Assembly: GCF_019236475.1 (NCBI RefSeq)
Contig: NZ_JAFAIX010000012.1
Span: forward strand, 1,120,619-1,184,618
Origin: Chitinophaga sp.
GTDB lineage: Bacteria; Bacteroidota; Bacteroidia; Chitinophagales; Chitinophagaceae
Direction: 5' to 3'
Length of the DNA: 64,000 bases
Shown: one piece after another, positions 10,102-45,974 of the stretch
Layout of the letters: every line of letters starts with the position of its first letter
Position numbering within the stretch: position 1 is the first letter of the stretch
Position numbers and translations under genes: made by a program
The notes under the pieces: generated by a model
Told to the model about the DNA's origin: nothing
The model's input: the letters and a program-made list of their open reading frames with translations, nothing else
The model's database searches: none

Positions 10102-10103
10102 TT

Positions 10104-25200: not shown

Positions 25201-27498
25201 AACCGTTTAATTGCAGCTACTTCTGGTATTGCGGATAATGGTAATGGCTGGAAAATTTCCACTCCTTCCAATGATGCGCAATATAGCTACTATCTACATG
25301 GTCCACTGGCAAGAACTCTTATCGGTTCCAAATTTGTCCAGGGTATCGATTATGCCTATACGTTACAAGGTTGGTTGAAGTACATCAATGGGGTGCAGTT
25401 GGATCCACAGAAGGATCTTGGTAAAGATGGTACTAACGGATATGCACCTGATGTAATGGCTTATTCCCTGGATTACTTTACCGGTGATTATAAGAACATT
25501 GGTGGTCAGAAATTGGGTATTAATTATCAGCATGCCACCACTGATATCACTGGTCAGAATTTGTACAATGGGAATATTAGTCGTACTACAGCGGCACTGA
25601 GTAATATTAATGGAGGCATGCCTGTGGGATATTCTTATCGTTATGATCAGTTGAACCGTATCCGCTCCATGCGCCGTCATCCATTGACTAATACCACTTC
25701 CACATGGGGAGCGGCACAAATTGGCACCAATCGTAATGGAGAAGACTATACCTATGATGCGAATGGTAACATCCTGACTTTGAACCGTAACGGTAATGAT
25801 GATAACCATCTTGCCATGGATAGGTTGGCATATCAGTATGAACGTGATGGAGAGGGGTATCTGTTGAATAACCAATTACAGTTAGTACATGATGCTGTTC
25901 CTGCATCTACCTATCCTTCGGATGTAGATGATATGACTACTGCATTCCGTTATGATTCTATTGGTAATCTGATTGCAGATGAGTCCAATGGCATTTCGGA
26001 GATCAAATGGACAGTTTATGGTAAGATACAATCCATTAGTAGTACAAATGGCTCATTAATTTACAAATATGATGCTGGTGGAAACAGGATTTACAAAGAA
26101 TTCCATCCTGCTTCTTCACCTTCCACCGTACAGCGTACGTGGTATCTCCGTGATCCTCAAGGACAAGTATTGGCAACCTATGGAAATACCAATGGGGATA
26201 ATGCAACCTATTGGAAAGAACAGTATCTTTATGGAAGTAGCAGGTTAGGCATGTGGCAGCCTGATATGCTGGTGGCGGGTGGATCTGTTGGAAACGCGAG
26301 TTCCATCTGGGGGCAGGGTAACCGTAAACGTTATGAGTTATCCAATCACCTGGGGAACGTATTGGCTACTATTGGTGATGAGAAAAGTGGAGATTATGCT
26401 ACGGTGTTTAACCAGACAGATTATACACCGTTTGGAGCGCAGATGGATGGTGCGGTTTGGAATTTAGGAGCAGGCTACAGGTATGGGTTTAATGGTAAGG
26501 AGAATGATAATGAGGTGAAGGGTGATGGGAATCAGCAGGATTATGGGATGAGGGTGTATGATCCGAGGATTGCGAAGTTCTTATCTGTGGACCCGTTGAC
26601 GCAAGATTATCCGTTTTATACACCTTATCAATTTGCTGGTAATAATCCAATAAAGTACATAGACTTGGATGGTGGTGAGCAATTAGACCCCATTTCTAGG
26701 TATTTATTTAATAATGCTGCTTTAACTATTGTCAAAGATCCGACATCTACTAAAGCAAAGGCGCTTAGCATCGGAATGGGAGTTGGTGGTTCAGTGGAAA
26801 AGCAAATAGGTTTTTACATTAACGCATTTAGGCATCCTATTAATACGGTTAAGTCCTTAGGAAAGATGCTGGTGCAGACTAATGAAGAACGTATTGCCGA
26901 CTATGCAAACTCTATTACTCTTAAATATACTGCTCTAGGCGATAACAATGCCATTTATGGAGCTGGCGCTGAGGCAACAACGGATATAATCTTTGGGCTA
27001 AGTAGTTTGAAGGCTGGGTTTAAATCGCCTACTGTTGCGGAGCCTCCCGCTCCATCAGAACCAGCTGGACCACCTCCAATAACCTTTGAATATGAAGGTG
27101 TTCAGCATGAGGTTCAGGCAACGACTCCATATAGAAGACCAACTAATGCTACTACCAATGCCCAAAGACGGGCAGTGAACCAGCCTGGAGCTACTTGTGT
27201 TACTTGCGGTGTATCAAATGTTAGAATGAATGCAGACCATATTACACCATTGTCTATCGAATTTTTGACAAGTGGTAATATAGATGCAACACATATGCGG
27301 TCATTAGAAGCTGTTCAGCCTCAGTGCGGAAACTGTTCAAATGCACAAGGTGTAACATTGCGAAATATAACCAGAGTAGTAAATAATCAGATACGACTGA
27401 GACAAAGCTCGAATCCAAGCCCAAGTCCAAGTCCAAATCCGCCTGCTACTCCAACTAATATTAATCAAATAGGACAAAATGGATCAACAACTCCTTAA
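19228..27498 (+). CDS. RHS-repeat polymorphic toxin with N-terminal signal peptide and C-terminal HNH-type nuclease tip
   Basis: 2756 aa. Start is TTG 19228 or GTG 19234. Signal peptide LLLTVVCLLFAITAMAG. DUF6443-like stretch (VVSFFDGTLRNRQSVTL...ETIYDAYGRAVANILPAP). Many YD repeats, an RHS core and a variable C-terminus (see sub-features). Confidence 0.92.
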   Translation: MPVKILSLYLRNLLLTVVCLLFAITAMAGIEPYQQKLQGTLKKGDTLIVKDEKFQNSSYNWAQIRNNKVVNVITLGLRSDTVFKKIPTFKCEADLKIEYWSSPDQDLPITLQHVSLKIGYDSVAGSIYQQMDQYRFANAYKIKVTINDISSKELGKLPPLFYLNAEVIVNRDYLPDPKADLVPIVTGASGGATSPKMRTTQLNATTAGAAPAYTVNVVWEGAPSNELYDLEWTFVDETSANGKSLAAAGANPSDALLAGMFRNNSTRISIEGNTYSIPLVQQHQYLLTRIRRVDETKGYRDEGDWVYKLMVNGQKVPAVLTLANGIDWYESGRNWQYSAVYAEDGKRKEVVSFFDGTLRNRQSVTLSSTANKAIVQETIYDAYGRAVANILPAPVNNETLRFYEGVNLGPDGQPYTWQNVLKNETGSCTIKPDPLNTSNGASRYYSANNDITTDPFRKNIPDAEGYPIAVTTYTPDNTGRPSVQGGVGFQLQPDNSNPLTNRSTRLYYGKPEQWELDRIFGNDIGYADHYLKNMTIDPNGQVSVSYQNSNGKVIATALTGSNPDTSLLPLSDRPEPRRIKYRMFTPDRFKFDAQLLKLTATSTYLAAVPYVKDTLELNIPDLIKKYQENNVTICSNCFYELSVQVSDDCGQILVDIKNDEIGSKLPDCGKNGNTQRIINIPVNKIGEYYVTVTLALNPYAIEAFTDDFIKNNTNLKTQFYFVLELLKRENFTKCFSDCSSCKAALGERSDFMQAFKQRMQQNGIDVVANQATIDVWVSAWYDVLYSNCQASRETCTPSPCDRLKGLLMEDVSPGGQFALFDANGNPLEPTINVISNNWRAVFPAMTSGPDYENNKFEVNDGVILTPNSPDFTLQMLVQYWQPQWAEKFINFHPERCAYDFCLGNSQYKKWDQRLTEVYTSIAELPAVLNGVQYSRTDPAWLLAADPYFKPGAPGAAYMGSFQNDLIRYSERVLKISAPLKSISDFVDFSLYCVDITGSINRYQPANTSTAWTQCDPEPSCRIPDLEWQYYLKFYLELKDKYYQQYMDSAFCKGKCRVGTSSAPVPGTELPGADCSGILPSDFRAYYEVINYEGYVTYEYTGNPIKEGVTVKVSVFDNGDYRDEFGTDVMGAEFTHYTPTKLVFNAGRGKHGRIPKVFLETVLQSCTSDPVYVDTCDPLYRNKQSRIGNAALPFAVSTDTMTLKQQVKDSLNKQLNSACSVNVDSFIAKLSHSSTYSGLSTTMRSSLRAGLLEICTKGGDLEHIFGSNTVKPGESTANGDVSMEQVMKRVIGYSVFTLDFNPWLTDAFYAYDKPGQSVAKVTSKTTAAICTKLDALRAEQQVNQPGMSLYNYLVSQYGSAMNLKEADFNALVKSCSNCRYLIDREIKLPVFLDGTAKGCITGIEFNAAMSDLSAAISDFQNTSNPNYNDVVRNYLNQRWGFTLGETEYALYKDQLQTSPNAILCNIPVYDQIDQNPLQCMFNLIDGAVEGGKRQYDQYIDSVRKDFKNRYIAVCSGVKATGDYSTSVQNYHYTLYYYDQAGSLVRTIPPAGVKLIDSPEQLEYIRKARDAGNSCNYNGPMQNTPVSDALLAIGDAVVNNNQALEMWVAGSKDPVHLVTPVGNNKAYFTMAVHNGHMEIAIYRLTSPSPEIEIVNSNIISVAVGTDFALRPFNHIVIQGTNLSDATSPMSVYMNGVLLQEEQNVPGSPLEWEIDGSGTFTTDIAMLRQMRVYNRLLASNEIMANADEMCMGLSPDYESGLRNNLVNWSRINTTDADGLPTQNPDGTVVGYTGGIYPKHNLKTSYAYNSLGGVVRQRTPDAKESKFWYDYTGKLVFSANAEQQREAGRYSYTKYDDLVRIVEVGEKRNAAVLTMPDFLPESTVQQQYGSGTDGQMTTTIYDVPVLNTSLYPQDNLRKRVAASIYRDAAGANPIATYYSYDPLGNVKSLWQQLDGLHEMKRLEYKYDLVSGKVNEVRYQFGKPDQFFYNYSYDADNRLIAATSGIADNGNGWKISTPSNDAQYSYYLHGPLARTLIGSKFVQGIDYAYTLQGWLKYINGVQLDPQKDLGKDGTNGYAPDVMAYSLDYFTGDYKNIGGQKLGINYQHATTDITGQNLYNGNISRTTAALSNINGGMPVGYSYRYDQLNRIRSMRRHPLTNTTSTWGAAQIGTNRNGEDYTYDANGNILTLNRNGNDDNHLAMDRLAYQYERDGEGYLLNNQLQLVHDAVPASTYPSDVDDMTTAFRYDSIGNLIADESNGISEIKWTVYGKIQSISSTNGSLIYKYDAGGNRIYKEFHPASSPSTVQRTWYLRDPQGQVLATYGNTNGDNATYWKEQYLYGSSRLGMWQPDMLVAGGSVGNASSIWGQGNRKRYELSNHLGNVLATIGDEKSGDYATVFNQTDYTPFGAQMDGAVWNLGAGYRYGFNGKENDNEVKGDGNQQDYGMRVYDPRIAKFLSVDPLTQDYPFYTPYQFAGNNPIKYIDLDGGEQLDPISRYLFNNAALTIVKDPTSTKAKALSIGMGVGGSVEKQIGFYINAFRHPINTVKSLGKMLVQTNEERIADYANSITLKYTALGDNNAIYGAGAEATTDIIFGLSSLKAGFKSPTVAEPPAPSEPAGPPPITFEYEGVQHEVQATTPYRRPTNATTNAQRRAVNQPGATCVTCGVSNVRMNADHITPLSIEFLTSGNIDATHMRSLEAVQPQCGNCSNAQGVTLRNITRVVNNQIRLRQSSNPSPSPSPNPPATPTNINQIGQNGSTTP
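24031..24460 (+). other. LamG/concanavalin-like insertion inside the RHS protein
   Basis: ...LEMWVAGSKDPVHLV...FNHIVIQGTNLSDATSPMSVYMNGVLLQEE...IAMLRQMRVYNRLLASNEI. This is the typical LamG_3-style ending (R-x-Y-N-R-x-L-S-x-x-E-I). Confidence 0.55.
24631..26679 (+). other. YD/RHS repeat block and RHS-associated core
   Basis: Repeats such as YAYNSLGGVVRQ, WYDYTGKLVFS, YSYDPLGNVKSL, YKYDLVSGKVNEV, YSYDADNRLIAA, YRYDQLNRIRSM, YTYDANGNILTL and YKYDAGGNRIYK. The core ends YGMRVYDPRIAKFLSVDPLTQDYPFYTPYQFAGNNPIKYIDLDGGE. Confidence 0.9.
26680..27498 (+). other. Variable C-terminal toxin region (linker, Pro-rich hinge, HNH/EndoVII-like nuclease, PS-rich tail)
   Basis: 273 aa after the RHS core. Hinge AEPPAPSEPAGPPP. 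Then CVTCG(27196)...NADHITPL...QPQCGNCSNAQG(27325), i.e. CxxC...DH...CxxC as in zinc-stabilised beta-beta-alpha-metal nucleases. Tail SSNPSPSPSPNPPATP. Confidence 0.6.
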
Positions 27499-27859
27499 GT
27501 TAGAATTGGAAATATCACATAGGCAACAGGAACTGTGCAGGAAATATGGAGCACCATATTTTGAAACATCAATAGATAAATTATTGGGAATTGCAACAGA
27601 AACCTTTGCAAAGCCTATGAAGTGGCCTATAAATGGTTTACGCCATCCGATAGAATCGGAGAATTCTTCTAATTGGTATATCTGGGCAGGTGAGGATTTT
27701 AAGGAGACGGATGATTTTTTTCAACCAATGCATATTTATCATCTGAATAAAGTATACCCCAAAATATTAGATTATTTGGGGTTACCTCCTGGTTGGCGCT
27801 TTTTGTTCGATGATACTTATGAAGATGTTTGGTATGATGAAAGTTTACTACATATTTAA
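27479..27859 (+). CDS. Putative cognate immunity protein
   Basis: 126 aa with no signal peptide. The ATG overlaps the toxin 3' end by 20 nt, the classic toxin-immunity arrangement. No family recognised with confidence. Confidence 0.7.
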   Translation: MDQQLLKLELEISHRQQELCRKYGAPYFETSIDKLLGIATETFAKPMKWPINGLRHPIESENSSNWYIWAGEDFKETDDFFQPMHIYHLNKVYPKILDYLGLPPGWRFLFDDTYEDVWYDESLLHI

Positions 27860-30819: not shown

Positions 30820-30839
30820 AAGTCAAGTAAAAAACTAGC

Positions 30840-31124
30840 ATGGAATATATATTATTTCCTATATGGTTATTCTATTCAATTCTTATGTTTTGGAGTGGTT
30901 TCCGGTGGTCAGCATTATATAACCAGGGACTTCATAACAGCATGACCAAGAAGATATCATTGAAAGGGTTAAAAGAATGTCTTTTAGCAGCCAAGACACC
31001 GGATGATGTTGCGTATGTGAAAAGAACGAAAGTAATTTACTGCATAGCTTTGGTAGTGTTCTATAGTTCAATAATTTTGATATTGTGTCCCTTAATATAT
31101 AAGTTATATCAGCATTCAGAATGA
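30840..31124 (+). CDS. Small membrane protein
   Basis: 94 aa with two clear hydrophobic segments (ILFPIWLFYSILMFWSGF and IALVVFYSSIILILCPLIY). 4-nt overlap with the next ORF. Confidence 0.5.
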   Translation: MEYILFPIWLFYSILMFWSGFRWSALYNQGLHNSMTKKISLKGLKECLLAAKTPDDVAYVKRTKVIYCIALVVFYSSIILILCPLIYKLYQHSE

Positions 31125-31711: not shown

Positions 31712-31760
31712 GGGTATAATTCAATGAGAAGACCTATTAGATCTCCTCATTGCCTCTACC

Positions 31761-32672: not shown

Positions 32673-32685
32673 AATGCATGATTGA

Positions 32686-33144: not shown

Positions 33145-33150
33145 GGTGTA

Positions 33151-34167: not shown

Positions 34168-34741
34168 GGTCTCAAAAGTACTATGGGCCTACGTGGAATG
34201 AAAATTACAATCTATTATAGGTCATAACATAAAGTTATAACTGTTATAAAAATGCTGCATGTACGAAACGTTGCTGGTATGTATTATCGTCAAAAAAAAA
34301 GAAGGTACATGATATGAATGATGAGTGGTTTGTAATATTCCTTAAAGCGGGCATATTCTTTATGAATAAATGTTTGTCAAGTAGGCCATGGTAGAAGGAT
34401 GTATGGTTTTTTTGTGGAGTTGTAAAAGTGCATACCACAATAGTGCTATTTAAAGTTTTTTCTTTAAAGAATGGAATTGAATGGTTATTTTTGCTTATGT
34501 AGATATCCTATATCTGTCGAAGATATTTAACGTTAGCCCGAAATAGGAGTGTTATTCTTTTATTCTGTGAGACCATATAAATTAATACTACTATGCCTAT
34601 TATTCGCTCTGGAAGCGATTTTCGAGAAACGCAGCATTCCATTCATATCAATGAATTTGATATAGTGGGGATTTATATCAATCATCAGTCTTGGATGGGT
34701 ATCCACTAAATCAAAGTTATCTAGTTCATTGTAATGTTCTC

Positions 34742-37357
34742 ATGAAGAAAATTATCGCTCTATTTATCCCGCTATTGATAGCGAAGATCTCCTATGCCCA
34801 GAAAGTTTACCAGATACGAGCAGACAGTGTTCGGATTTATAATGTCTGTGATACGGCTGAATTGATTCTGGAAAACAGGACGCAAGGTGTGAATGGTTAC
34901 TTGTATAACAAAGGGGCCGGCCGTACTGAGTTTAGGAAGATTCAATTAAAGAAGATTGGTACCTCTCAGATTGCGATTGTGGGGCAGGATACGTTGGATT
35001 TGAATACGCTTCCTGGTATTGGCGGAATAGATACCGCTTACAGGGAAGGAGATTATATTAAGTATCTGAAGAGAAGCAATCTGTATGCTATTTATGCGCC
35101 CTTGCCGGATTTTAAGGTAGTACCCAATGGTGCGGAAACTCCATTTTCAGATTTTAAGGGTGATGCTATAACTGGTTTCTTTGCGTATAACTCACCAGAC
35201 ATGCCGCCGATTTCAGATCAGGCTCAAATAAATCCAGGCACAGGAAAGCAATTCTATGTAGGGCATGCTGTAAAGTCGGCCGCCATAGGTTATCAGATGG
35301 CTGTTAACTGGGATGGAGAAACACTTGGTCCTAAAGGCGCGTTCTTAAGAATAAAGGATGATACTAACACTGCTGGATGGGGAGCTTGGAGGGAACTGTT
35401 GTTTAAGGATTATGCAGACAGTAAGTACGCATTGACAAATAGTAGTCAAGATGACTTGCATGCTGTATTGAGCAGGGGAAATCAGAGTACCAATAGAATG
35501 TTGATAAATGCTATTCGTGATCCGGGCCCTCCTACCATCTCATTGGCTGTTGGTGATTATGACAGCGGTATCAATTCAGAAAGGGATGGTATACTGACGC
35601 TGCGTGCAGATGGGTTTGAAGCAGCGAGATGGATGAAATCAGTATTTGCAGTGAGTGATACGCTGAAAGTGGCTGGTAATATAGCTTGGCATCAGGGTAA
35701 TGATCAGCTCTTATTAAGAAATCGTGGTGAGTTTGACAATTCGGAACTTGATAATCTTGGCGGTTTGAATGGAACTGCACGAATTGCGTATCCTGATCAC
35801 TTTTCGAGTTTGTTAAGCTTCTCTAATCAGGGGAGCACGGGTACTTTCCAATTATTAGCGGGTTATACTGGTTCACTTCAATTCCGTAGTAAAATAGATG
35901 AAAGAATTTGGTCGCAATGGAAAACTATTTGGCATGATCAAAATGATGGCGCTGGTTCAGGTCTGGATGCGGATCTGCTGGATGGTTATGAACAAAAAAC
36001 AGAACCGGTAAATAATACCATTGTAAGAAGAGATAATGCTGGTAATATCAGCGCGCAATATTTTAACACCACTGCTGTTACCCAGCCAGGGTTTGATATT
36101 ACCAAAGTATTTGCAAGTAATGATAACTATGTCCGTGCAGTAGATGCAACCAGTATTAGGAAGTTTATAGGCTTGCCGGATGCGGGGGAAACCTTGCAGA
36201 GTGTAACGACTCGTGGGAATACTACAGACAAAACTTTGGTGGCTCCTGGATTACAGTTATCTCCAAGTGTAACGCTTGTAGCACCTCCTATTAGTGAATC
36301 ATATCTGAGTGTGAATACACCAAGTGGTTCTTTGTCTATAGGTTGTGCTAATCAGGGATGGGCACATTTCTTTACTAGTAACCCTCGTTTCTATTTTGAT
36401 AAGGAAATAGCTGTCAATGGTGGATTCCGTATTTATTCTTCCAATACGGTTTTAGATGACAAATATCTGAACTTCAATGAGGGACACGGTAATGGTATTC
36501 GTTTCTGGAATGGTTCTAATGACTATAAAATATTTATGTCTGCCACCAATGCATCTGGATTTCCGATTCCGAGCATTAGCGCACAAGAGAGCGATTATAA
36601 TATGTACTTCCGCATGAATGGTCTTAACCGTGGATTTGTTTTTGTGACGGGAGATAATCAACCTAAAGTGCAGATTGATGCTTCTGGGCTGACTTCAGGT
36701 GCGTGGCTACGTGTTAGAGGGGATAATGGGCTCTTTTTTGAAGATCATCATGGAGGGTTTCATATGATAGATGATTCCTGGATACGTACATATAATCATG
36801 TTTCATTTTTTGTTCCGAATGGATCTATTCTTAGAACTGACGGGGAATTACAAGTGGGTACGGATGGTTCAAAATTGAGAGTTCCAATGGGAGGAATTCC
36901 AACCATTGATGGCAACACTATTTTTCACGCTGGAAACTTACTGTATTCTGTAGCTGCAAATCCTGATAGGTTAGCCCAACGCGATGCCAGCGGAAACCTC
37001 TTCGCCAGCGGATTTTACCAATCTTCCAAAGCAAGCCTGAAGAAAAATATTGCTGATTTCAATGAAGCCGCGTTGCCGTTACTGAACAAAGTGCAGATCA
37101 AGCAATTTGTCTATAAAGACGATACAGCGGAAAACCTGCATTTTGGTATCATCGCAGATAGTACTGATTGGCATTTCTCTACCCGTAATCAGGATAAATT
37201 CGATACGAACAGTTCCCTTGCTATCACGATGAAAGCCGTGCAAGAATTGAGTGTTCAGAATAAAACGCTGGCGGAAGAAAATGAACAGTTGAAGAATCAG
37301 GTGGCTGAATTGCTGAAACGAATGGAAAACCTGGAAAAAAAGATTAGCAAAGATTAA
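34742..37357 (+). CDS. Exported tail-fibre-like protein, paralogue 1 (C-terminal intramolecular chaperone/S74-like domain)
   Basis: 871 aa from ATG 34742; the ORF-track TTG at 34691 adds 17 non-signal residues. Signal peptide MKKIIALFIPLLIAKISYAQ. Fibre-type motifs GSGLDADLLDG and TIVRRDNAGNISAQYF. C-terminal S74-like domain plus a coiled coil. Confidence 0.85.
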   Translation: MKKIIALFIPLLIAKISYAQKVYQIRADSVRIYNVCDTAELILENRTQGVNGYLYNKGAGRTEFRKIQLKKIGTSQIAIVGQDTLDLNTLPGIGGIDTAYREGDYIKYLKRSNLYAIYAPLPDFKVVPNGAETPFSDFKGDAITGFFAYNSPDMPPISDQAQINPGTGKQFYVGHAVKSAAIGYQMAVNWDGETLGPKGAFLRIKDDTNTAGWGAWRELLFKDYADSKYALTNSSQDDLHAVLSRGNQSTNRMLINAIRDPGPPTISLAVGDYDSGINSERDGILTLRADGFEAARWMKSVFAVSDTLKVAGNIAWHQGNDQLLLRNRGEFDNSELDNLGGLNGTARIAYPDHFSSLLSFSNQGSTGTFQLLAGYTGSLQFRSKIDERIWSQWKTIWHDQNDGAGSGLDADLLDGYEQKTEPVNNTIVRRDNAGNISAQYFNTTAVTQPGFDITKVFASNDNYVRAVDATSIRKFIGLPDAGETLQSVTTRGNTTDKTLVAPGLQLSPSVTLVAPPISESYLSVNTPSGSLSIGCANQGWAHFFTSNPRFYFDKEIAVNGGFRIYSSNTVLDDKYLNFNEGHGNGIRFWNGSNDYKIFMSATNASGFPIPSISAQESDYNMYFRMNGLNRGFVFVTGDNQPKVQIDASGLTSGAWLRVRGDNGLFFEDHHGGFHMIDDSWIRTYNHVSFFVPNGSILRTDGELQVGTDGSKLRVPMGGIPTIDGNTIFHAGNLLYSVAANPDRLAQRDASGNLFASGFYQSSKASLKKNIADFNEAALPLLNKVQIKQFVYKDDTAENLHFGIIADSTDWHFSTRNQDKFDTNSSLAITMKAVQELSVQNKTLAEENEQLKNQVAELLKRMENLEKKISKD
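37022..37357 (+). other. Peptidase S74 / intramolecular chaperone-like domain plus coiled-coil tail (paralogue 1)
   Basis: YQSSKASLKKNIADFNEAALPLLNKVQIKQFVYKDDTAENLHFGIIADSTDWHF...SSLAITMKAVQELSVQN fits the remembered S74 pattern (S-D-x-R-L-K-x-N-I ... L..L..V.Y.YK ... h-G-x-I-A-Q ... lv..l..a.qEL). Confidence 0.7.
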
Positions 37358-37379
37358 TTATAAAACCTGTATTCTTCTC

Positions 37380-39749
37380 ATGAAGATAATTATCGCCCTA
37401 TTTATTCCATTACTATTAGGAATAGCTACCTACGCTCAGAAAGTATATCAAATACGTGCCGACAGTGTTCGTATTTATAATGTCTGTGATACTGCTGAAT
37501 TGATCCTAGAAAACAAGACACAAGGTGTGAATGGTTACCTGTATAACAAAGGTTCCGGCCGTACTGAATTTAGCAAAATACAATTAAGGAAGATTGGTAC
37601 CTCGCAGATTGCGATTGTGGGTCAGGATACCTTGGATTTGAATACCCTGCCTGGTATTGGTGGTATTGATACTGCTTACAGGGAGGGAGATTATATTAAG
37701 TATCAGAAGAAAAGTAACCTCTACACTATTTATGCACCATTACCCGATTTTAGAGTAGTGCCCGATGGCCAGAATAATCCTTTTACAGATTACAAGGATA
37801 ACGCTATGACAGGCTTTAGTGCTTACAATTCTCCGGATATGCCGACTGTTTCAGATCAGGCTCAGGTGAATCCAGGCACTGGAAAACTATTTTATACCGG
37901 TCATGCAGTGAGGTATGGCGCTACCGGATATCAAATGGCGGTGAATTGGGATGGTGAAACCTTTGGACCTAAAGGCGCTTTTTTAAGAATCAAGGATGAT
38001 ACGAACCTTGCTGGATGGGGAGCCTGGAGAGAATTGTTATTTAAAGATTATGGGGATAAAAAATACGCAAAGACAGACAGTACCTACACAAAACTGAATC
38101 TTTCTACTCCTGGTCAGGCGCAGGTTTCCTGGAATAACCTGATCAATGTACCCACGCTAAGTGTCGTAGAACAGGATAATTTGACTACCGTACTAACGCG
38201 AGGAAATGTCAGCAAACTGAAAATGTATGTGCATGCCGGGACTGACATGGCAGCTCCCACTATTTCACTGGGTATAGGAGGTAATAATAGCGGTATCAAT
38301 GCAGAAAGTGGATTAGGTATACTAACACTGCGTTCTTATGGTAAGGAAATCGCCAGATGGAGGTACGATTCATTCACTGTGAGTACGGTCTTAAAAGTAA
38401 ATGGGGATGTATATGCACCGAAATTCAATACCGCTGTTTCTTTGGAGACAAGTATGGTCCCTTCCAGGGTGTATGCCGGTACAGAGGATGGCTTTATCCG
38501 CCCAATGGATCAATATAGTATTAAAAAATTTCTCGGTATACCTCGTGATGGAGAAACCTTGGCAAGTGTTTGCAATCGTAACAACCTTACTAACAGAATA
38601 CTGATTGCACAGGGACTTCAGCTTGACTCAACAAATGAAAATATAAGTATCACTAAATCCAATGATCTAATTCTAGCGATAAATAGTCCGTATGGTACTG
38701 TGAACATTGGCTGTAATACGCAAGCCAATGCTAGTTTTACTACCACTGCTAACGGATATTATTTCGATAAGGATTTATATGTACCAACTGCAATACGTGT
38801 TGGCGATTATGGTTATAATACAGTCCTGGATGGAAAAAATTTAAGCCTCGCTTCTGGAGATGGTAATGGTATTCGATTCTTGAATGGTAGTGACGAATCG
38901 AAAATTTTCGTGTCGTCATCAGCTACTTCTGGATATCCGATGTTGGGACCCTTCTCCAGTGATGTTAATATGTACTTCCGTATGAACAGGGATAACCGCG
39001 GATTTGTGTTCGTAACTGGAGATAATAACCCAGCAGTTCAGATTGATGCCCAGGGGATGTATGTTGCACAAGCGCTCCGTTTGATGGGGACTGGTGGTTT
39101 AATCTTCCAGAAATATGGAGGTGGATTCGAAATGCCCGATAATTCATGGGTACGTGTATATGGCGGGAAAAATTTCACTACAGCTACAGGCATACTCCGC
39201 ACTGAAAGTGAGTTGCAAGTAGGCGTGAATGGAACAAAATTGAAAGTACCGGCAACAGGTATTCCTACGATAGATGGTAAGACTATTTTCCATGCTGGAA
39301 ACTTGCAGTATTCTTCAGATGTATACCCTAATTACCTCGCACAGCGCGATGCCAGCGGTAGCCTCTTTGCCAGCGGCTTTTACCAATCCTCCAAAGCAAG
39401 CCTGAAGAAAAATATCGCTGATTTCAATGAAGCCGCATTACCATTACTGAACAAAGTGCAGATCAAACAATTTGTCTATAAAGATGATAAAGATGAAAAC
39501 CTGCATTTCGGTATCATCGCGGATAATACGGACTGGCACTTCTCTACACGTAATCAGGATAAATTCGATACCAACAGTTCCTTGGCTATTACTATGAAAG
39601 CCGTGCAGGAATTGAGTGAGGAAAATACAGTGCTTAAAAAACAGGTAGCTGCATTACAGCAAAACGAGGAAGTAGAACAGTTGAAAAATGAAGTGTCTGA
39701 ACTGCTGAAACGGGTGGAGAGTGTAGAGAAAATGATAAAGAAGGATTAA
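37380..39749 (+). CDS. Exported tail-fibre-like protein, paralogue 2
   Basis: 789 aa with signal peptide MKIIIALFIPLLLGIATYAQ. N- and C-termini are near-identical to the other paralogues. 22-nt spacer from paralogue 1. Confidence 0.85.
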   Translation: MKIIIALFIPLLLGIATYAQKVYQIRADSVRIYNVCDTAELILENKTQGVNGYLYNKGSGRTEFSKIQLRKIGTSQIAIVGQDTLDLNTLPGIGGIDTAYREGDYIKYQKKSNLYTIYAPLPDFRVVPDGQNNPFTDYKDNAMTGFSAYNSPDMPTVSDQAQVNPGTGKLFYTGHAVRYGATGYQMAVNWDGETFGPKGAFLRIKDDTNLAGWGAWRELLFKDYGDKKYAKTDSTYTKLNLSTPGQAQVSWNNLINVPTLSVVEQDNLTTVLTRGNVSKLKMYVHAGTDMAAPTISLGIGGNNSGINAESGLGILTLRSYGKEIARWRYDSFTVSTVLKVNGDVYAPKFNTAVSLETSMVPSRVYAGTEDGFIRPMDQYSIKKFLGIPRDGETLASVCNRNNLTNRILIAQGLQLDSTNENISITKSNDLILAINSPYGTVNIGCNTQANASFTTTANGYYFDKDLYVPTAIRVGDYGYNTVLDGKNLSLASGDGNGIRFLNGSDESKIFVSSSATSGYPMLGPFSSDVNMYFRMNRDNRGFVFVTGDNNPAVQIDAQGMYVAQALRLMGTGGLIFQKYGGGFEMPDNSWVRVYGGKNFTTATGILRTESELQVGVNGTKLKVPATGIPTIDGKTIFHAGNLQYSSDVYPNYLAQRDASGSLFASGFYQSSKASLKKNIADFNEAALPLLNKVQIKQFVYKDDKDENLHFGIIADNTDWHFSTRNQDKFDTNSSLAITMKAVQELSEENTVLKKQVAALQQNEEVEQLKNEVSELLKRVESVEKMIKKD
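39387..39749 (+). other. S74/intramolecular chaperone-like domain plus coiled coil (paralogue 2)
   Basis: Same SSKASLKKNIADFNEAALPLLNKVQIKQFVYKDD..NLHFGIIAD motif as paralogue 1. Confidence 0.7.
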
Positions 39750-39771
39750 TTAATAAAACTGAATTCTTCCC

Positions 39772-42135
39772 ATGAAGAAAATTATTGCGCTATTTATCCC
39801 ACTGTTGATAGGAACTATCTCCTATGCCCAAAAGGTATATCCGATTCGTGCAGATAGTGTTCGTATTTATAATGTCTGTGATACGGCTGAATTGATCCTG
39901 GAAAACAGGACACAAGGTGTGAATGGTTACCTGTATAACAAAGGGGCCGGCCATACTGAATTTAGGAAAATACAATTAAAGAAAGTGGGTGCCTCACAGA
40001 TTGCGATTGTGGGGCAGGATACCTTGGATTTGAATACGCTTCCTGGTATTGGCGGAATAGATACCGCTTACAGGGAAGGAGATTATATCAAGTATCTGAA
40101 GAGGAATAATCTGTATGCTATTTATGCACCGTTGCCGGATTTTAAGGTGGTGCCTAATGGCTCGGAAACGCCTTTTGCAGACTATAAAAGTAGTGCTGTG
40201 ACTGGTTTTAGCGCCTATGATTCACCAGATATGCCAGTAGTTTCAGATCAAGCACCAGTTAATGTTGGTCCAGACAAGAAATATTATGTGGGGCATGTGG
40301 TAAAATATGGGGATGTAGGTTATCAAATGGCAGTGAACTGGGATGGCGAAACATTTGGTCCTAAAGGAGCATTCCTAAGAATAAAGGATGATACAAACCT
40401 TGCTGGATGGGGGGCTTGGAGAGAACTGTTGTTTAAAGATTATGGGGATAAAAAATATGCAAATACAGACAGTACTTACACGAAACGGAACCTTTCTACC
40501 CCCGGTCAGGCGCAGGTTTCCTGGAATAACTTGATCAATGTATCCCCGTTGCCTGCCCTAGAGACGGATAATTTGACTACCGTACTAACGAGAGGGAATG
40601 TCAGCAAACAAATAATGTATGTGGATGCCGGGGATGACCAGGCAGCCCCCACTGTTTCACTGGCCATAGGAGGTCATGATAGCGGTATCAATGCAGAAGA
40701 TAATGGCATCCTGTCGATGCGCTCTCTGGGTAAGGAAATAGCCAGATGGAGCAACGATTCATTCACCGTGAATTCGATCTTCAAAGTAAATGGTTATGTA
40801 TTAGCACCGAAATTCAATACCAGTGCTCCTTTAGAGACAAATATAAAACCTACCAGGGTGTATGCTGATTATGGGGAGGGCACTCTCCGCGCAATGGATA
40901 CAATGAGTATTAGAAATTTTCTTGGCATCTCTATCAGAGGTGAAAACTTGTCTGATGTTATCTGGCGTGGAAGCGTCACTGACAAAATGCTGATTGCTCC
41001 TGGACTCCAGTTTTATGGCACAATGAATGGAATAACAAGTATCGATAAATCCAAGGAAGGTCCAGTACTGGCTATAAATAGTCAATATGGTACTATGAAC
41101 ATTGGTTGTAATACGCAAGACTCTGCTAAATTTACAACCACTGTCAACGGATATTATTTCGATAAGGGTTTAAATGTACCAGGTGCACTACATATTGGTG
41201 ATAAGGCAGGCCTGGATGGGAAAAATTTAAACCTCACTGTTGGAGATAATAATGGTATTCATTTCTGGAATGGTAGTGACGAATGGAAACTTATCATGTC
41301 GTCATCAGCAGCTTCCGGATATCCCATGCTGAGTCCTTTCTCCAGTGATTATAATATGTACTTCCGTATGAACAGGAATAACCGAGGATTTGTGTTCGTA
41401 ACTGGTGATAATAACCCAGCAGTTCAGATGGATGTCGTGGGGATGTATGTTGGGCAAACGCTCCGTTTGATGGGGACTGGTGGCTTAATCTTCCAGAAAT
41501 ATGGAGGTGGATTCGAAATGCTCGATAGTGCCTGGATACGTGTGTCTGGCGGGAAAAATTTCAATACAGTTGCGGGCATACTCCGAACTGAAAATGAGTT
41601 GCAAGTTGGCGTGAATGGGACGAAATTGAAAGTACCAGCAACAGGTATACCAACGATAGATGGTAAAGCTATTTTCCACGCTGGAAACTTCCTGTATTCA
41701 TCAGATGTATCCCCTAATTATATCGCACGGCGCGATGCCAGCGGTAGCCTCTTCGCCAGCGGCTTTTACCAATCCTCCAAAGCAAGCCTGAAGAAAAATA
41801 TCACTGATTTCAATGAAACAGCATTACCGTTGCTGAACAAAGTGCAGATCAAGCAATTTGTCTATAAAAATGATACAACAGAGAACTTGCATTTCGGTAT
41901 CATCGCGGATAATACGGACTGGCACTTCTCTACACGTAATCAGGATAAATTCGATACGAACAGTTCCCTTGCTATTACTATGAAAGCCGTGCAGGAATTG
42001 AGTGAGGAAAATGCAGCGCTTAGAAAACAGATAGCTGAATTACAAAAAAAGCAGGAAGTAGAACAGTTGAGAAATAAAGTGTCTGAACTGCTGAAACGCT
42101 TGGAGAGTCTGAAGAAAATGATAAAAGAGGATTAA
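39772..42135 (+). CDS. Exported tail-fibre-like protein, paralogue 3
   Basis: 787 aa with signal peptide MKKIIALFIPLLIGTISYAQ. Collinear with paralogue 2 throughout. Confidence 0.85.
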   Translation: MKKIIALFIPLLIGTISYAQKVYPIRADSVRIYNVCDTAELILENRTQGVNGYLYNKGAGHTEFRKIQLKKVGASQIAIVGQDTLDLNTLPGIGGIDTAYREGDYIKYLKRNNLYAIYAPLPDFKVVPNGSETPFADYKSSAVTGFSAYDSPDMPVVSDQAPVNVGPDKKYYVGHVVKYGDVGYQMAVNWDGETFGPKGAFLRIKDDTNLAGWGAWRELLFKDYGDKKYANTDSTYTKRNLSTPGQAQVSWNNLINVSPLPALETDNLTTVLTRGNVSKQIMYVDAGDDQAAPTVSLAIGGHDSGINAEDNGILSMRSLGKEIARWSNDSFTVNSIFKVNGYVLAPKFNTSAPLETNIKPTRVYADYGEGTLRAMDTMSIRNFLGISIRGENLSDVIWRGSVTDKMLIAPGLQFYGTMNGITSIDKSKEGPVLAINSQYGTMNIGCNTQDSAKFTTTVNGYYFDKGLNVPGALHIGDKAGLDGKNLNLTVGDNNGIHFWNGSDEWKLIMSSSAASGYPMLSPFSSDYNMYFRMNRNNRGFVFVTGDNNPAVQMDVVGMYVGQTLRLMGTGGLIFQKYGGGFEMLDSAWIRVSGGKNFNTVAGILRTENELQVGVNGTKLKVPATGIPTIDGKAIFHAGNFLYSSDVSPNYIARRDASGSLFASGFYQSSKASLKKNITDFNETALPLLNKVQIKQFVYKNDTTENLHFGIIADNTDWHFSTRNQDKFDTNSSLAITMKAVQELSEENAALRKQIAELQKKQEVEQLRNKVSELLKRLESLKKMIKED
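41773..42135 (+). other. S74/intramolecular chaperone-like domain plus coiled coil (paralogue 3)
   Basis: SSKASLKKNITDFNETALPLLNKVQIKQFVYKNDTTENLHFGIIADNTDWHF... Confidence 0.7.
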
Positions 42136-42157
42136 TTAATAAAACTGAATTCTTCCC

Positions 42158-44530
42158 ATGAAGAAACTTATTTCGCTATTTATCCCACTATTGATAGGAA
42201 CAATTTCCTACGCCCAAAAAGTATATCAGATTCGTGCGGACAGTGTTCGGATTTACAATGTATGTGATACCGCTGAATTGATCCTGGAAAACAGGACGCA
42301 AGGTGTAAATGGTTACCTATATAATAAAGGTGCCGGACGTACTGAGTTTAGGAAAATACAATTAAAGAAGATTGGTACCTCGCAGATTGCAATTGTGGGG
42401 CAGGATACCTTGGATTTGAGTACCCTGCCAGGTATTGGTGGTATTGATTCACTTAGATATGAATCATCAACTGGTATATTTTACGCACATAAAAGCGCCG
42501 GCGGCGAAATTGCAATTCCCACAGGTTTGGTTGATGACATGGCAGCCCGTTATACCAAGAAACAGACAGATATGGGTTTTATTCAGGCCTCACCAAGTTC
42601 ACCTCAATCTGCTGGGTTCTCCCTATCAGGTGTAGGAACGTTTTATAATTCTTCCTCCACATTTGATCCAGTAAATAATTCGAGCATAATGGTTCAGAAT
42701 AATTCAAGTATATATACTGGTGGTGCATCCATTGCATTTCGGGCAGCTAATTATCGGGCCACATCTTGGATCGCAGCCCAGACAGGTGGAGTAGGTCCTG
42801 GGAGGATAAGTTCGCTTAACTTTGGTAATGATGGTTATACATTGATGTCACTATGGGGATTTACTAACGCTAATACTATGCTGACAGTTAATGGACAAAT
42901 ATTAGCAAATGGCCCATTAACGGTACGTGGCTCCATATCAGGCAATAGTCTTGACGTAGCGGACATTAGATCCAATGGATTACAAAGTGGTCTTACACTG
43001 GCTGATCGGTATTTTGCAGGAGTTGATCCTACGGGATCTAATACTAATAGGTGGAGTATTGTGGCAGACACTGAACGGTTATCATTTTTGAATAATAACA
43101 TTCGCCGCAATGCAACTAATAAGGCGGCCCTCTCAATAGCACCCAGTAACTCAATAGCTTCAATATACAATGTTGGGATCAATGTTCTCGATCCACAATC
43201 CACATTGGATGTAAGAGGAGAAGATATGCGATTACGCGGAGCTGGTAGTAATTCTTCCCTATTAGTAAAAATGGATGCATTTAGTAATGGTGCTAGTATT
43301 CAGTCATTAGATAGTAATGGTGTTGAATCACGGAGTTTATACCTCAATCCTGCCGGAGGGGATGTAGTGGCTGGAGACCAAATTATTGCAAAAGGATTGT
43401 CTTTTAAAACTGCTACAGGATCTACCTCAAAGCTGAGCCTTACTGCAGCAACTAATGGAGATGCTGTGAGTGTAAATTCCGAATTTGGTTCCGTTACGAT
43501 GGGCTGCCATAACAATGGATGGGCACATTTTGAAACAACCAATCCCAGATTCTATTTTGATAAAGAAGTAGCTATAAAAGGGATATTACGCATTTATGAT
43601 AGTAATACTACCATCGAAAGGAATTATGTGAATATACATGCAGGTGAAGGCAATGGCCTCCGTTTCTGGGATGGAAGTGATGACTCTAAAATAGTTTTAT
43701 CCTCGCCCGCAGCATCTGGTTATACTAGCCCTAGTCAGTATACCAGTGACCTCAATATGTATTTTATTATGAAAGGGCTGAACCGTGGTTTTATTTTTGT
43801 GACTGGTGATAACCAACCTAAAGTTCAGATTGATAAATTTGGACTGACTTCTAGCGACTGGTTGCGGGTAAGAGGTGACCATGGGCTCTATTTTGAAGAC
43901 TTCGGAGGTGGTTTCTACATGACAGATAACGAATGGATTCGTACCTATAACGGAAAATCGTTCTTGGTGCAAGGTGGTACTCTCAGAGCTGATGGTGAAT
44001 TTCATGTGGGCCAGAATGGTTATACAATGAGAGTTCCTAACAACGGCGATCCGACTATTAAAAACAATGTAATTTATCACGCTGGGAATTTACTATTTTC
44101 TACCTCTGCCACTCCCAATTATTTAGCCCAGCGCGATGCCAGCGGCAGCCTCTTCGCCAGCGGCTTTTACCAATCCTCCAAAGCAAGCATGAAGAAAAAT
44201 ATCGCTGATTTCAACGAAGCGGCGCTACCGTTGCTGAATAAAGTGCAGATCAAACAATTTGTCTATAAGGATGATAAAGCAGAAAACTTGCATTTCGGTA
44301 TCATCGCGGATAGTACTGACTGGCATTTCGCTACGCGTAATCAAGATAAATTCGATACCAACAGTTCCTTGGCCATCACGATGAAAGCAGTACAAGAATT
44401 GAGTGAGCAGAATAAAACAATTGTAGCAGAAAATGCTGCGCTGAAAGATCAAAATGAAGTGCTGAAAAGCCAGATGGTGGAGTTGCTGAAACGCTTGGAG
44501 AATCTGGAGAAAAAAGTGAACAAGGATTAA
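42158..44530 (+). CDS. Exported tail-fibre-like protein, paralogue 4 (different shaft)
   Basis: 790 aa with signal peptide MKKLISLFIPLLIGTISYAQ. It shares residues 1-~97 and the last ~330 aa with the others. The middle is unrelated and contains the fibre-type motif VGINVLDPQSTLDVRG. Confidence 0.85.
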   Translation: MKKLISLFIPLLIGTISYAQKVYQIRADSVRIYNVCDTAELILENRTQGVNGYLYNKGAGRTEFRKIQLKKIGTSQIAIVGQDTLDLSTLPGIGGIDSLRYESSTGIFYAHKSAGGEIAIPTGLVDDMAARYTKKQTDMGFIQASPSSPQSAGFSLSGVGTFYNSSSTFDPVNNSSIMVQNNSSIYTGGASIAFRAANYRATSWIAAQTGGVGPGRISSLNFGNDGYTLMSLWGFTNANTMLTVNGQILANGPLTVRGSISGNSLDVADIRSNGLQSGLTLADRYFAGVDPTGSNTNRWSIVADTERLSFLNNNIRRNATNKAALSIAPSNSIASIYNVGINVLDPQSTLDVRGEDMRLRGAGSNSSLLVKMDAFSNGASIQSLDSNGVESRSLYLNPAGGDVVAGDQIIAKGLSFKTATGSTSKLSLTAATNGDAVSVNSEFGSVTMGCHNNGWAHFETTNPRFYFDKEVAIKGILRIYDSNTTIERNYVNIHAGEGNGLRFWDGSDDSKIVLSSPAASGYTSPSQYTSDLNMYFIMKGLNRGFIFVTGDNQPKVQIDKFGLTSSDWLRVRGDHGLYFEDFGGGFYMTDNEWIRTYNGKSFLVQGGTLRADGEFHVGQNGYTMRVPNNGDPTIKNNVIYHAGNLLFSTSATPNYLAQRDASGSLFASGFYQSSKASMKKNIADFNEAALPLLNKVQIKQFVYKDDKAENLHFGIIADSTDWHFATRNQDKFDTNSSLAITMKAVQELSEQNKTIVAENAALKDQNEVLKSQMVELLKRLENLEKKVNKD
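44174..44530 (+). other. S74/intramolecular chaperone-like domain plus coiled coil (paralogue 4)
   Basis: SSKASMKKNIADFNEAALPLLNKVQIKQFVYKDDKAENLHFGIIADSTDWHF... Confidence 0.7.
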
Positions 44531-44553
44531 TGATTAGAACTGAATTTATTTAT

Positions 44554-45108
44554 ATGAAGAAGATATCCATACTTATAATTTGTCTTTTTACTAGTTGCCT
44601 ATCATTTGCACAACTGCCAGGTGGTGCTGTCAGTCTTTTGAAGGATGTTTATATCTATTCAACTACCAATTCTCTACTGTATCGTTTAACAACGAACAAC
44701 TATCTGGTGACGCATAACGAAATTCGACAGAAAATATCACAAGGGTATTTTACAGCATTGAATCTGAATGCTATCCCCGCTGATAACAACTGCATCACAG
44801 CAACAAATGCCAAGTTGTGGATAAGTATTGATGCGACGAAATTACCTACAAATGGAAGACTACCTGTATGGCAGGAATTAGTTCCTAAGGCTTCCTGTAC
44901 AGGAGATTTACAAAAAATGATTAACGGCGTTTGTGAAACCGCAGTGTGGAGATGTTATGATCAGGAATTGGACCATGTTGACCCTCCATCACCTCCTAAC
45001 AGACCTTTTTCGCTCTATTGGTATCGTGTTTACTCGGACTATGTATGGAGTGATGGAACACGCGCTTATCGATCAACAATGGAGGTTACTATGGATGCAT
45101 GCTTTTAA
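44554..45108 (+). CDS. Small secreted Cys-containing protein, last gene of the fibre operon
   Basis: 184 aa from ATG 44554 (MKKISILIICLFTSCLSFAQ). The ORF-track start at 44530 overlaps the stop of paralogue 4. It is preceded by a diverged copy of the inter-paralogue spacer. Confidence 0.6.
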   Translation: MKKISILIICLFTSCLSFAQLPGGAVSLLKDVYIYSTTNSLLYRLTTNNYLVTHNEIRQKISQGYFTALNLNAIPADNNCITATNAKLWISIDATKLPTNGRLPVWQELVPKASCTGDLQKMINGVCETAVWRCYDQELDHVDPPSPPNRPFSLYWYRVYSDYVWSDGTRAYRSTMEVTMDACF

Positions 45109-45217
45109 TGCATGTTAGTGTTCTCTTTCTGAATTATAAGTAGGAGACTTTAGCCAGAAAATGGCGGGAAAAATTGAATCAGCTATAATTCTGAAATTTC
45201 TTATTTTCAGATTAAAA

Positions 45218-45937
45218 ATGAAATTTATCCCGCCATTGCTGTCTTTACTTCTGTTGGCCTGTAACAGTACAGAACATACGCCCATCCTTACAGATTCAGT
45301 TTCTGTTAGTCGTTCGAGGGATGCTATGATAGATGAGCAGGAAAATGAAAAAGCATATGGACTGGATGATTTTGATCATTACGTTTATGGCACATATGGA
45401 TACGATTCTACCCGATTTACGTTAATCCCCACCAAATCCACCATCACCAATCAATCTGATGAGGACGATCGCCTCCAGAATACCGCTGAATTTATAAACA
45501 AAGATTATCAACTGAAGTATATTTGGACTGGTACAGAAAATGGTGACTCCTCCACTTCGCAACTATTTGTCAATAATAAACCCGTACAATTCTTTGATCC
45601 ACAAACAAATAAGGAAGGAGACCTTCCCGGAGATCTGGATTTTGTAGAAGGAACGCAACTAGGGTTATATACCTGGCCCTCCAAAAAATATTTACTCATA
45701 GTAGGACAGGCACATGGGGCGCAAAGCTGGTACAGAGGAATCCTATATGGTATATTGGTGAACGTTTCAGTTGATCCTATGAGGGCTTATCTGCTCGGTA
45801 CTTATGAAGATCCTGGGGACTTTTACCTGAAATTAAATACCAATCAACAATTGACTTATATTTCTTGTATGCCGGATTTCGGTGAAAGAGGTGCTGTTGA
45901 TAGCTTGTATCCGCATCTGCATATCATTGAAAAATAA
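45218..45937 (+). CDS. Lipoprotein, function unknown
   Basis: I prefer ATG 45218 (MKFIPPLLSLLLLACNS, lipobox) over 45161. 239 aa. Confidence 0.6.
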   Translation: MKFIPPLLSLLLLACNSTEHTPILTDSVSVSRSRDAMIDEQENEKAYGLDDFDHYVYGTYGYDSTRFTLIPTKSTITNQSDEDDRLQNTAEFINKDYQLKYIWTGTENGDSSTSQLFVNNKPVQFFDPQTNKEGDLPGDLDFVEGTQLGLYTWPSKKYLLIVGQAHGAQSWYRGILYGILVNVSVDPMRAYLLGTYEDPGDFYLKLNTNQQLTYISCMPDFGERGAVDSLYPHLHIIEK

Positions 45938-45965
45938 TAGGGAGACAGAGCTGGCTGTCTCCCTA
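45938..45965. terminator. Bidirectional hairpin terminator (TAGGGAGACA family)
   Basis: tagggagacag-agctgg-ctgtctcccta, a perfect 11-bp stem between convergent stops (45937 + / 45975 -). T-rich on the minus-strand side. Confidence 0.65.
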
Positions 45966-45974
45966 TTAACTATT

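Follow-up and report, generated by a model that had tools for sequence, protein, structure and literature searches.

What history has produced four adjacent fibre genes whose mutual resemblances change from one part of the gene to the next? The stretch of DNA that raises this question, hereafter the window, comprises 64,000 nucleotides (nt) of a chromosomal, metagenome-assembled Chitinophaga genome (Chitinophaga sp., assembly GCF_019236475.1, contig NZ_JAFAIX010000012.1, positions 1,120,619 to 1,184,618 of the forward strand). The genes, here copies c1 to c4, stand in tandem between positions 34742 and 44530 of the window. A preliminary description had noticed that relationships shift along them and had proposed an exchange of segments between the cassettes of the array. 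According to our analysis, the locus is likely a tandem array of four complete secreted fibre paralogues that are recombinant mosaics, because their modules have different genealogies, and at least three kinds of event would have contributed. The proposal therefore holds as to mosaicism, but not as to exchange between the array cassettes only, since some of the donors appear to lie outside the array.

All four genes are complete open reading frames (ORFs) in one orientation; each has a start codon of its own and encodes a signal peptide. Along them we distinguish modules A, B, C, an optional I, D, E, F and G, in this order, from the signal peptide and conserved N-terminal domain (A) past the stalk modules (C, I and D) to the S74 intramolecular chaperone (F) and a C-terminal coiled coil (G) (Table 1).

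Relationships among the copies change along the genes

The tests for recombination were made on a codon alignment of c1 to c4, using homologous columns, with one gene as close outgroup, L003a of Chitinophaga dinghuensis. That relationships shift along the fibre genes is borne out, and by more than chance; the changing groupings are seen in a sliding identity profile. In the early part, c1, c2 and c3 are collinear, as had been described (70-89% nt identity), and c4 falls to ~33% at column 289. There, at nt 42446 and right after the peptide ...LPGIGGID, c4 departs from the sequence of the others, which it rejoins at ~43409-43465. The pairing described for the distal domain is also found: at the amino acid (aa) level c1 and c4 are 61% identical and c2 and c3 76%, with cross pairs at 44-53%.

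The clearest breakpoint was detected in the triplet c1, c2, c3 by the maximum chi-squared test, at column ~672 (max-chi2 105, permutation p<=0.001). Sites at which c1 is the odd one out make up 40/159 to the left of this point and 391/556 to the right; downstream of it, c2 and c3 become close relatives. A profile of synonymous divergence (dS), proposed beforehand as a check, is uneven along the gene and supports a mosaic. Among the four copies dS is 0.46-0.85 in module A and 0.2-0.8 in module F, and it is saturated in the middle modules; for c2 and c3 it amounts to 0.63 in A, is saturated in B and settles at 0.2-0.4 from column 630 to the end. When the count was restricted to codons encoding the same amino acid in both copies, silent differences between c2 and c3 dropped from 38% of sites before column 630 to 16% after it (Fisher p=6.6e-9), with no change across the same column for c1 and c2 (41% vs 42%). 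Selection at the protein level is thus no explanation for the change between c2 and c3.

Site patterns in quartets are heterogeneous along the alignment, both with L003a included (p=1.8e-8) and for c1 to c4 (4.6e-9). In module B they favour c1c3|c2L003a (20:9:5), in modules C to G c2c3|c1L003a (for example 62:9:6 in E), and quartets of the distal domain favour c1c4|c2L003a (50:22:17). The pairwise homoplasy index (PHI) is significant for c1, c2, c3 and L003a (p=0.0005) as well as for the homologous columns of c1 to c4 (p=0.002). As a control, the five-gene array of Chitinophaga sp. Hz27 (L002a-d), of the same family, gave no significant mosaic signal (PHI p=0.79, quartet p=0.16).

At the junction of modules A and B, a run of 65 nt had been reported to be common to c1 and c3 (34994-35058 = 40024-40088). 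The two stretches are exactly identical, but the run covers only 7 polymorphic sites and is not significant by itself (GENECONV-like permutation p of 0.37 within the first 288 columns and of 0.15 within the first 630). The grouping of c1 with c3 and of c2 with c4 to which it belongs is nonetheless real: of 7 polymorphic sites in succession, five show the 13|24 pattern (post hoc permutation p=0.004). The five lie in alignment columns 267-288, right at the boundary of modules A and B, which is also where c4 switches.

Conserved ends cluster by genome and middle modules do not

In C. dinghuensis, the corresponding locus (L003) is syntenic, its 8.1 kb downstream being 84% identical, which corresponds to ~16% flank divergence. 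It holds a single fibre gene, then homologues of d192 and d258, the two genes that follow c4 in the window. Directly upstream of the fibre gene are an RHS gene and a small gene, which ends 40 nt before it. The locus is collinear with c2 at its 5' end and with c4 and d192 at its 3' end. Within L003a, the 5' ~1 kb resembles c2, the coiled coil resembles c4, and the distal domain resembles nothing in the array. No closer strain was found in the genome scan, in which C. dinghuensis is the nearest relative, and a metagenome scan gave one locus at 58% identity.

Trees built segment by segment are incongruent. For segments A and F, c1 to c4 form a group that excludes L003a (99% bootstrap); Jukes-Cantor distances among the copies are 0.10-0.13 in A and 0.08-0.18 in F, and 0.21-0.32 to L003a. 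For segment B, c2 is nearest to L003a and not to any paralogue (97%), and c1 joins c3 (85%). For segments C and E, c2, c3 and L003a group together (99-100%), and in E c1 joins c4 (69%). In segment G, the distance from c4 to L003a is 0.27, vs 0.59 from c4 to c2. On this evidence, the conserved ends cluster by genome, and the middle modules group across species and predate the species split.

Neither congruent segment trees nor an absence of breakpoint signal, either of which had been named as speaking against mosaicism, was therefore found: groupings reach bootstraps of 85-100% and permutation thresholds are exceeded. The assertion that no single duplication tree can produce the observed groupings stands. 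One of these groupings, c1, c2 and c3 as opposed to c4, falls away as a conflicting four-taxon split, since it reflects the replacement of a module by a non-homologous one.

Modules from outside the array

This replacement concerns the middle of c4, which is non-homologous to c1, c2 and c3. No relative of it was found among 120 family proteins. A word-indexed protein search with the 340-aa middle, rich in Ser, Asn and Gly, missed even the parent protein and was uninformative; it was replaced by an exhaustive HMMER search of 1.84 billion representative proteins. The latter recovered the parent protein and, beyond it, returned three proteins only, all as partial matches: P0122 (36% over c4 aa 97-207), whose match starts at the same G-x-G-I-D-S junction, P0121 (51% over c4 aa 265-421) and P0123 (38% over c4 aa 360-413). 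Both P0121 and P0122 have a signal peptide, and their conserved N-terminal module is a different one (AQ[TS][SA]GNF..V..DSI.L.G.WIK.W). Judged by these similarities, the c4 middle is a near-orphan module, apparently common to fibre families with different anchors, and there are hints of module exchange between such families.

The additional segment that had been reported in c1 is present, but it measures ~121 aa and not ~85 aa; as c1 is without a ~29-aa segment of c2 and c3, its net surplus is +82-84 aa. The segment, module I, occurs in other Chitinophaga homologues at 47-62% identity. Known in other species, it is an optional module and no novel insertion.

How the mosaics may have formed, and when

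The three kinds of event that we propose differ in scale and in donor. Unequal crossing-over or gene conversion would have homogenised the conserved ends within the genome. Between any two variable middles lies a conserved block of ~0.75 kb, made up of modules F and G at the 3' end of one gene, the spacer of 22 nt and the beginning of the following gene, and homologous recombination in such blocks, between copies or with other loci of the family, could lead to conversion, duplication, deletion and chimeras. The identical spacers c2/c3 and c3/c4, together with the similar 3' and 5' sequences that adjoin them, are consistent with a duplication unit spanning two genes. A further kind of event may be seen in c2 and c3, of which the 3' ~1.7 kb would be of relatively recent common origin and the 5' 630 nt would have separate histories. 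Finally, sequence from beyond the array may have taken the place of whole modules at linker boundaries, with conserved short linkers, LPGIGGID among them, possibly serving as the junctions; the c4 middle that follows LPGIGGID and the presence or absence of module I in c1 would be examples. The data show the incongruence, the breakpoints, the foreign module and the synteny with the single-gene locus of C. dinghuensis; from them we infer RecA-type homologous exchange, a tentative direction for each event and, as set out below, a recognition function for the fibres. Two scenarios fit, an old array with homogenised ends or a young array with overwritten middles, and both involve recombination.

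The exchanges are old, ancient to intermediate in age, because dS at the ends is 0.46-0.85 and identical tracts do not exceed 70 nt. Nothing in the data shows cassette shuffling, for which the preliminary description saw room, to be ongoing or programmed. At the conserved ends, dN/dS is ~0.05-0.1, and their conservation appears to be due largely to purifying selection, with some homogenisation within the genome in addition.

Several results weigh against this reading. The ends are conserved genus-wide at the protein level, the N-terminal domain being 65-93% identical across Chitinophaga. In C. varians and C. fulva, the positional orthologues have each retained a distinct N-terminal module, so that concerted evolution is no family-wide rule. 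A GENECONV-like test of the longest concordant run was non-significant in every region tested and hence gave no sign of recent conversion; identical tracts reach 65-70 nt at most, and the pairs c1-c2 and c1-c4 are without any of >=30 nt. As to the trees, they were obtained by neighbour joining on 96-447 gap-free columns, a crude phylogenetic method, and with a sole close outgroup gene, itself a mosaic, any direction given to an event is tentative.

Alternative explanations

The array could also have grown from one gene after the split from C. dinghuensis and had its middles overwritten from elsewhere, with no exchange among the copies. We regard this as possible, though rather unlikely. It would agree with the one gene at the syntenic C. 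dinghuensis site, with the position outside the array of the relatives of the c4 middle and of c1 module I, with the roughly species-level distances of c2 modules A-B-C to L003a (0.22-0.37, for a flank divergence of 16%), and with the fact that recent conversion tracts were not found. However, both the haplotype at the A|B junction (p=0.004) and the grouping of c1 with c3 in B (85%) point to sharing between non-adjacent copies, and spacers c2/c3 and c3/c4 are identical, with similar flanks. Moreover, recombination is still required, so that this explanation differs in its donors alone from the one we favour, namely mosaics built within and from outside the array. An account without any recombination, in which one duplication tree is blurred by uneven constraint, rate shifts and misalignment, is highly improbable. 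Although the ends are under strong constraint throughout the genus, although proportions of odd-one-out sites among three taxa could follow rate shifts, and although the 65-nt run alone is non-significant, such an account meets a silent divergence between c2 and c3 that shifts 2.4-fold at the breakpoint while that between c1 and c2 stays steady, outgroup quartets in conflict and conflicting clades at 97-100% bootstrap. PHI is significant here and not in the control array of the same family, and the c4 middle, non-homologous to c1, c2 and c3, matches other proteins.

Variation by a dedicated system, be it shufflon-like inversion, antigenic variation from silent cassettes or a diversity-generating retroelement, comes to mind because conserved ends around variable middles look cassette-like and because Pfam Shufflon_N matches c4 (36 bits, cut-off 27.5) and, weakly, c1. 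Yet no more than positions 233-290 of the 324 in the profile are matched; the stretch 34000-46000 is free of inverted repeats, and the 64-kb window has no integrase, recombinase or reverse transcriptase. In addition, the array consists of four full-length co-oriented genes with a Sec signal and not a prepilin leader, and no partial or silent fibre gene copies are found elsewhere in the window. We consider programmed variation to be barely credible here. The same applies to an artefact in which strain variants of one gene were joined into a false array: the contig is indeed metagenome-assembled, but the copies differ by 10-60%, have unequal lengths and carry unique modules, and the same four proteins are encoded on two long contigs, one of 865 kb (ENA ERZ27313825 k141_2715699) and one of 1.68 Mb from an NCBI metagenome-assembled genome, where they carry locus tags JO154_21005 and following. 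Isolate genomes of other Chitinophaga, too, have comparable arrays, with 2-5 genes.

Architecture of the fibre proteins

The four proteins start with a Sec-type signal peptide, with cleavage between ...SYA and QKVY, and have no prepilin leader. The Gln that follows the cleavage site fits the "Q-rule" for extracytoplasmic proteins of Bacteroidota (PMC10653852). A beta-rich N-terminal domain of ~76 aa (aa 21-96), conserved in the genus, comes directly after the signal peptide, and module A as a whole is 84-90% identical among the copies in nt and 86-95% in aa. Contrary to the preliminary description, the last ~150 codons are not near-identical: identity there is 72-84% in aa and 78-91% in nt, and only the chaperone block of ~90 codons, module F, is well conserved (84-92% nt, 82-89% aa). 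Module G, the final ~55 codons, has diverged (57-77% aa among copies).

In all copies, module F matches Pfam Peptidase_S74 (PF13884), the chaperone domain by which endosialidases and tail fibres cleave themselves, with 30.2-32.6 bits (c1 30.7; cut-off 22). Ser762 and Lys767 (c1 numbering, ...YQS-S-KASL-K-KNI) are invariant in 54 aligned family members, and the SDxxxK motif deviates in that its Asp position is K/L in the Chitinophaga family. From this architecture, the S74 chaperone is predicted to trimerise the fibre, after which it should cut itself off. PHROG tail-fibre families match the chaperone region and some stalk motifs. The Shufflon_N-like motif, of ~55 residues, sits in distal domain E of c1 and c4. 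NCBI names c4 [quoted passage not shown] because of this partial motif; we judge the label, which is also borne by homologues in Chitinophaga sp. Hz27, to be a misnomer at the domain level.

An AlphaFold2 (AF2) monomer model of c1 was used for linker positions only. Module boundaries were compared with its low-confidence linkers as follows: A/B, aa 96/97 (linker 90-94); B/C, aa ~210-224 (222-237); end of I, aa 425 (400-428); start of E, aa 508 (502-505); start of F, aa 731 (729-735). Boundaries near low-confidence linkers fit, in the model, an exchange of folding units.

Taken together, the architecture could be that of surface-anchored trimeric recognition fibres with four binding specificities, a reading to which we give about even chances. 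Domain A is presumably the anchor to the surface of the producer and the distal head E presumably the ligand-binding part. It counts against this function, which is read from architecture, that the AF2 model of c1 is poor (mean pLDDT 62, pTM 0.26) and that a Foldseek search with it gave no match at E<=0.001. The weak Foldseek matches are thematically consistent: pyocin, Mu and endosialidase fibres, the mosaic adhesive trimer (MAT) fibre Bd2133 of Bdellovibrio, and S74/MyRF chaperones. A sequence search of the PDB with c4 gave no match, and an NCBIfam search no meaningful match.

Comparison with known fibre and surface-protein systems

Mosaicism is in itself expected for fibre genes and will not surprise a specialist, this kind being known from phages and Bdellovibrio. 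Phage tail fibres and tailspikes are textbook mosaics, as in T-even gp37/gp38, P2 gpH and the K1/K5 endosialidase-type spikes with a C-terminal intramolecular chaperone, and recombination at conserved motifs swaps their specificity. Like the Chitinophaga fibres, they have a conserved N-terminal attachment part, a receptor-binding part in the middle or distally that is exchangeable, and an S74 chaperone conserved at the C-terminus. Unlike them, the Chitinophaga fibres have Sec signal peptides, are encoded by four tandem chromosomal paralogues and are accompanied by no tail genes in the 64-kb window. What the array adds is statistically supported modular evolution in a secreted tail-fibre-like family that is bacterial and not of a phage, with putative binding modules that are older than the species and appear to have been swapped at linker boundaries, and with attachment and chaperone ends that cluster by genome.

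The closest bacterial parallel is found in Bdellovibrio bacteriovorus. This predator displays MAT fibres, which bind glycans of the prey, on its surface (Caulton et al. 2024, PMC10769870); the N-terminal domain, invariable among these fibres, is believed to bind an element of the producer surface, and "tip swapping" has been proposed (PMC10769870). Both are chromosomal multi-gene families of secreted phage-like fibres in which a signal peptide is followed directly by a conserved beta-rich N-terminal domain, common to all paralogues, the fibre and a variable distal part, and both have members that carry or lack an autoproteolytic S74 chaperone (SDxxxK). The likeness of the N-terminal domains, of ~130 aa in MAT fibres vs ~76 aa in Chitinophaga, is one of architecture. 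Unlike the MAT genes, those of Chitinophaga, a member of the Bacteroidota, form tight tandem arrays that have a conserved small accessory gene behind them and an RHS toxin locus upstream; in their SDxxxK motif, another residue stands in place of the Asp. If they are surface recognition fibres as in Bdellovibrio, they would provide a handle on how soil Bacteroidota recognise cells or substrates.

With regard to genetics, the lpl cluster of Staphylococcus aureus is instructive. There, the duplication unit spans two genes, and the 3' part of a gene, the intergenic sequence and the next gene's 5' part behave as a unit (PMC2568036). Like the fibre array, lpl consists of tandem surface-protein paralogues with alternating conserved and variable blocks and incongruent phylogenies within one ORF. 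Its conserved block is central in the ORF, whereas that of Chitinophaga spans the gene ends; lpl rearrangements were demonstrated among >10 strains (Tsuru & Kobayashi 2008, PMC2568036). The R64-type shufflon PilV has in common with the distal domain of c1 and c4 the short Shufflon_N motif (positions 233-290), and PilV shufflons and Chitinophaga fibres alike diversify the distal part of an adhesin. Of the features of the R64 shufflon, the Chitinophaga locus lacks the sfx-type inverted repeats, the Rci recombinase, the prepilin leader and the inverted segments.

Layout of the locus

The public assembly call for c1 agrees with a start at ATG 34742. The mechanical ORF of c1 begins at TTG 34691, and homology with the other copies begins just 12 nt before the ATG. 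The ~24 nt that lie 3' of the c4 stop are similar to the 22-nt spacers. Downstream of the array come d192, coding for a small secreted accessory protein that contains Cys, and d258. As no internal terminator stands out between c1 and d258, the six genes, c1 to c4, d192 and d258, look like a single operon; the hairpin listed in Table 1 comes after them. A scan for sigma-70 consensus promoters found fewer sites than in shuffled sequence; Bacteroidota promoters deviate from this consensus, and the result was not used.

Table 1. Features of the fibre locus, given as positions of the window
Feature	Position	Strand	Remarks
Fibre gene c1	34742..37357	+	871 aa from ATG 34742
Fibre gene c2	37380..39749	+	789 aa
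Fibre gene c3	39772..42135	+	787 aa
Fibre gene c4	42158..44530	+	790 aa; protein P0001
Spacer c1/c2	37358..37379	+	22 nt
Spacers c2/c3 and c3/c4	39750-39771, 42136-42157	+	22 nt each, identical to each other
Module A, signal peptide and conserved N-terminal domain	34742..35029 (c1), 37380-37667 (c2), 39772-40059 (c3), 42158-42445 (c4)	+	
Module B, compact beta domain	35030..35365 (c1), 37668-38003 (c2), 40060-40395 (c3)	+	c4 without B
Breakpoint zone	38004..38046 (c2), 35366-35408 (c1), 40396-40438 (c3)	+	alignment columns 631-673
Module I, optional stalk module	35654..36016	+	~121 aa; c1 only in the array; motif WH.GND...GSGLDADLLDG
Foreign middle of c4	42446..43465 (end approximate)	+	aa 97-436; non-homologous to c1-c3
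Distal domain E	36263..36931 (c1), 38628-39296 (c2), 41017-41682 (c3), 43409-44083 (c4)	+	
Module F, S74 intramolecular chaperone block	36932..37201 (c1), 39297-39566 (c2), 41683-41952 (c3), 44084-44353 (c4)	+	
Module G, C-terminal coiled coil	37202..37357 (c1), 39567-39749 (c2), 41953-42135 (c3), 44354-44530 (c4)	+	
d192, small secreted Cys-containing accessory protein	44555..45108	+	likely ATG 44555; mechanical ORF from 44530
d258, putative lipoprotein	45161..45937	+	69% identical in C. dinghuensis
Bidirectional terminator hairpin	45935-45968		after d258; strong; 14-bp stem
RHS-type polymorphic toxin and Imm33-like immunity gene	19228..27859	+	2756 aa; DUF6443, Rhs_assc_core

Elsewhere in the window are an RHS-type toxin, an Imm33-like gene, a SoxA/TsdA-type cytochrome c, a solute-binding protein, TonB-dependent receptors and housekeeping genes. 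Structural genes for the tail or baseplate of a phage, a tailocin or an extracellular contractile injection system (eCIS) are absent from the 64-kb window, and the context of the fibre locus is non-phage.

The fibre family and its neighbourhood in Chitinophaga

No member of the fibre family was seen outside Chitinophaga, where the genes mostly stand in tandem, 2-5 to an array. The N-terminal ~98 residues are common to all members. At the C-terminus, some have a chaperone of high identity, some a divergent one (33-40%) and some lack it, and the middles and distal domains vary. A literature search for DUF6443 returned no paper, and one for Chitinophaga with tail fibre or chaperone returned an eCIS survey only; the family and its conserved neighbourhood appear to be undescribed.

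In 13/23 Chitinophaga loci (L002-L005, L007-L011, L015, L016, L018 and L019), RHS homologues lie 1-4 kb upstream of the first fibre gene on the same strand, which suggests a functional link between the RHS toxin and the fibre array. At least 10 other Chitinophaga loci have a homologue of d192 directly 3' of their final fibre gene (31-61% identity); d192 itself has no Pfam or NCBIfam match. One could imagine that the RHS toxin, its immunity gene, a variable number of secreted S74 fibres and d192 make up a module for antagonism or predation in which the fibres provide targeting, although we hold this to be distinctly improbable. If true, the array would be more than an adhesin set standing by itself: the surface-anchored fibres would recognise different target-cell surfaces, module exchange would retune the target range, and the Bacteroidota would have their own equivalent of the Bdellovibrio MAT fibres, linked in this case to toxin delivery that depends on contact.

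Some observations on other loci and on the flanks may be added. C. varians (L008) and C. fulva (L009) have five-gene arrays of positional orthologues, with an N-terminal variant for each position. The first array gene of C. fulva is apparently split into two ORFs (9968-10570 and 10688-11923) and is a possible pseudogene.

Between the Imm33-like gene and c1, a block of ~6.9 kb (window 27900-34200) is absent from the syntenic C. dinghuensis site. It contains low-GC (0.34-0.36) small ORFs, a helix-turn-helix (HTH) gene and, on the minus strand, the genes for the solute-binding protein and the SoxA/TsdA-type cytochrome c. Two of its small ORFs have weak homologues beside fibre genes in two other loci (L006 and L021) and may be orphan immunity-type genes. 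Upstream of the RHS gene (window 7747-19213) are genes for proteins of 784 aa, 367 aa and 176 aa, a 2223-aa PA14/CBM protein and a 250-aa LolA3-like protein. This gene set recurs in L017 and L021 beside genes with the fibre N-terminal module, and L011 and L012 are listed for it as well.

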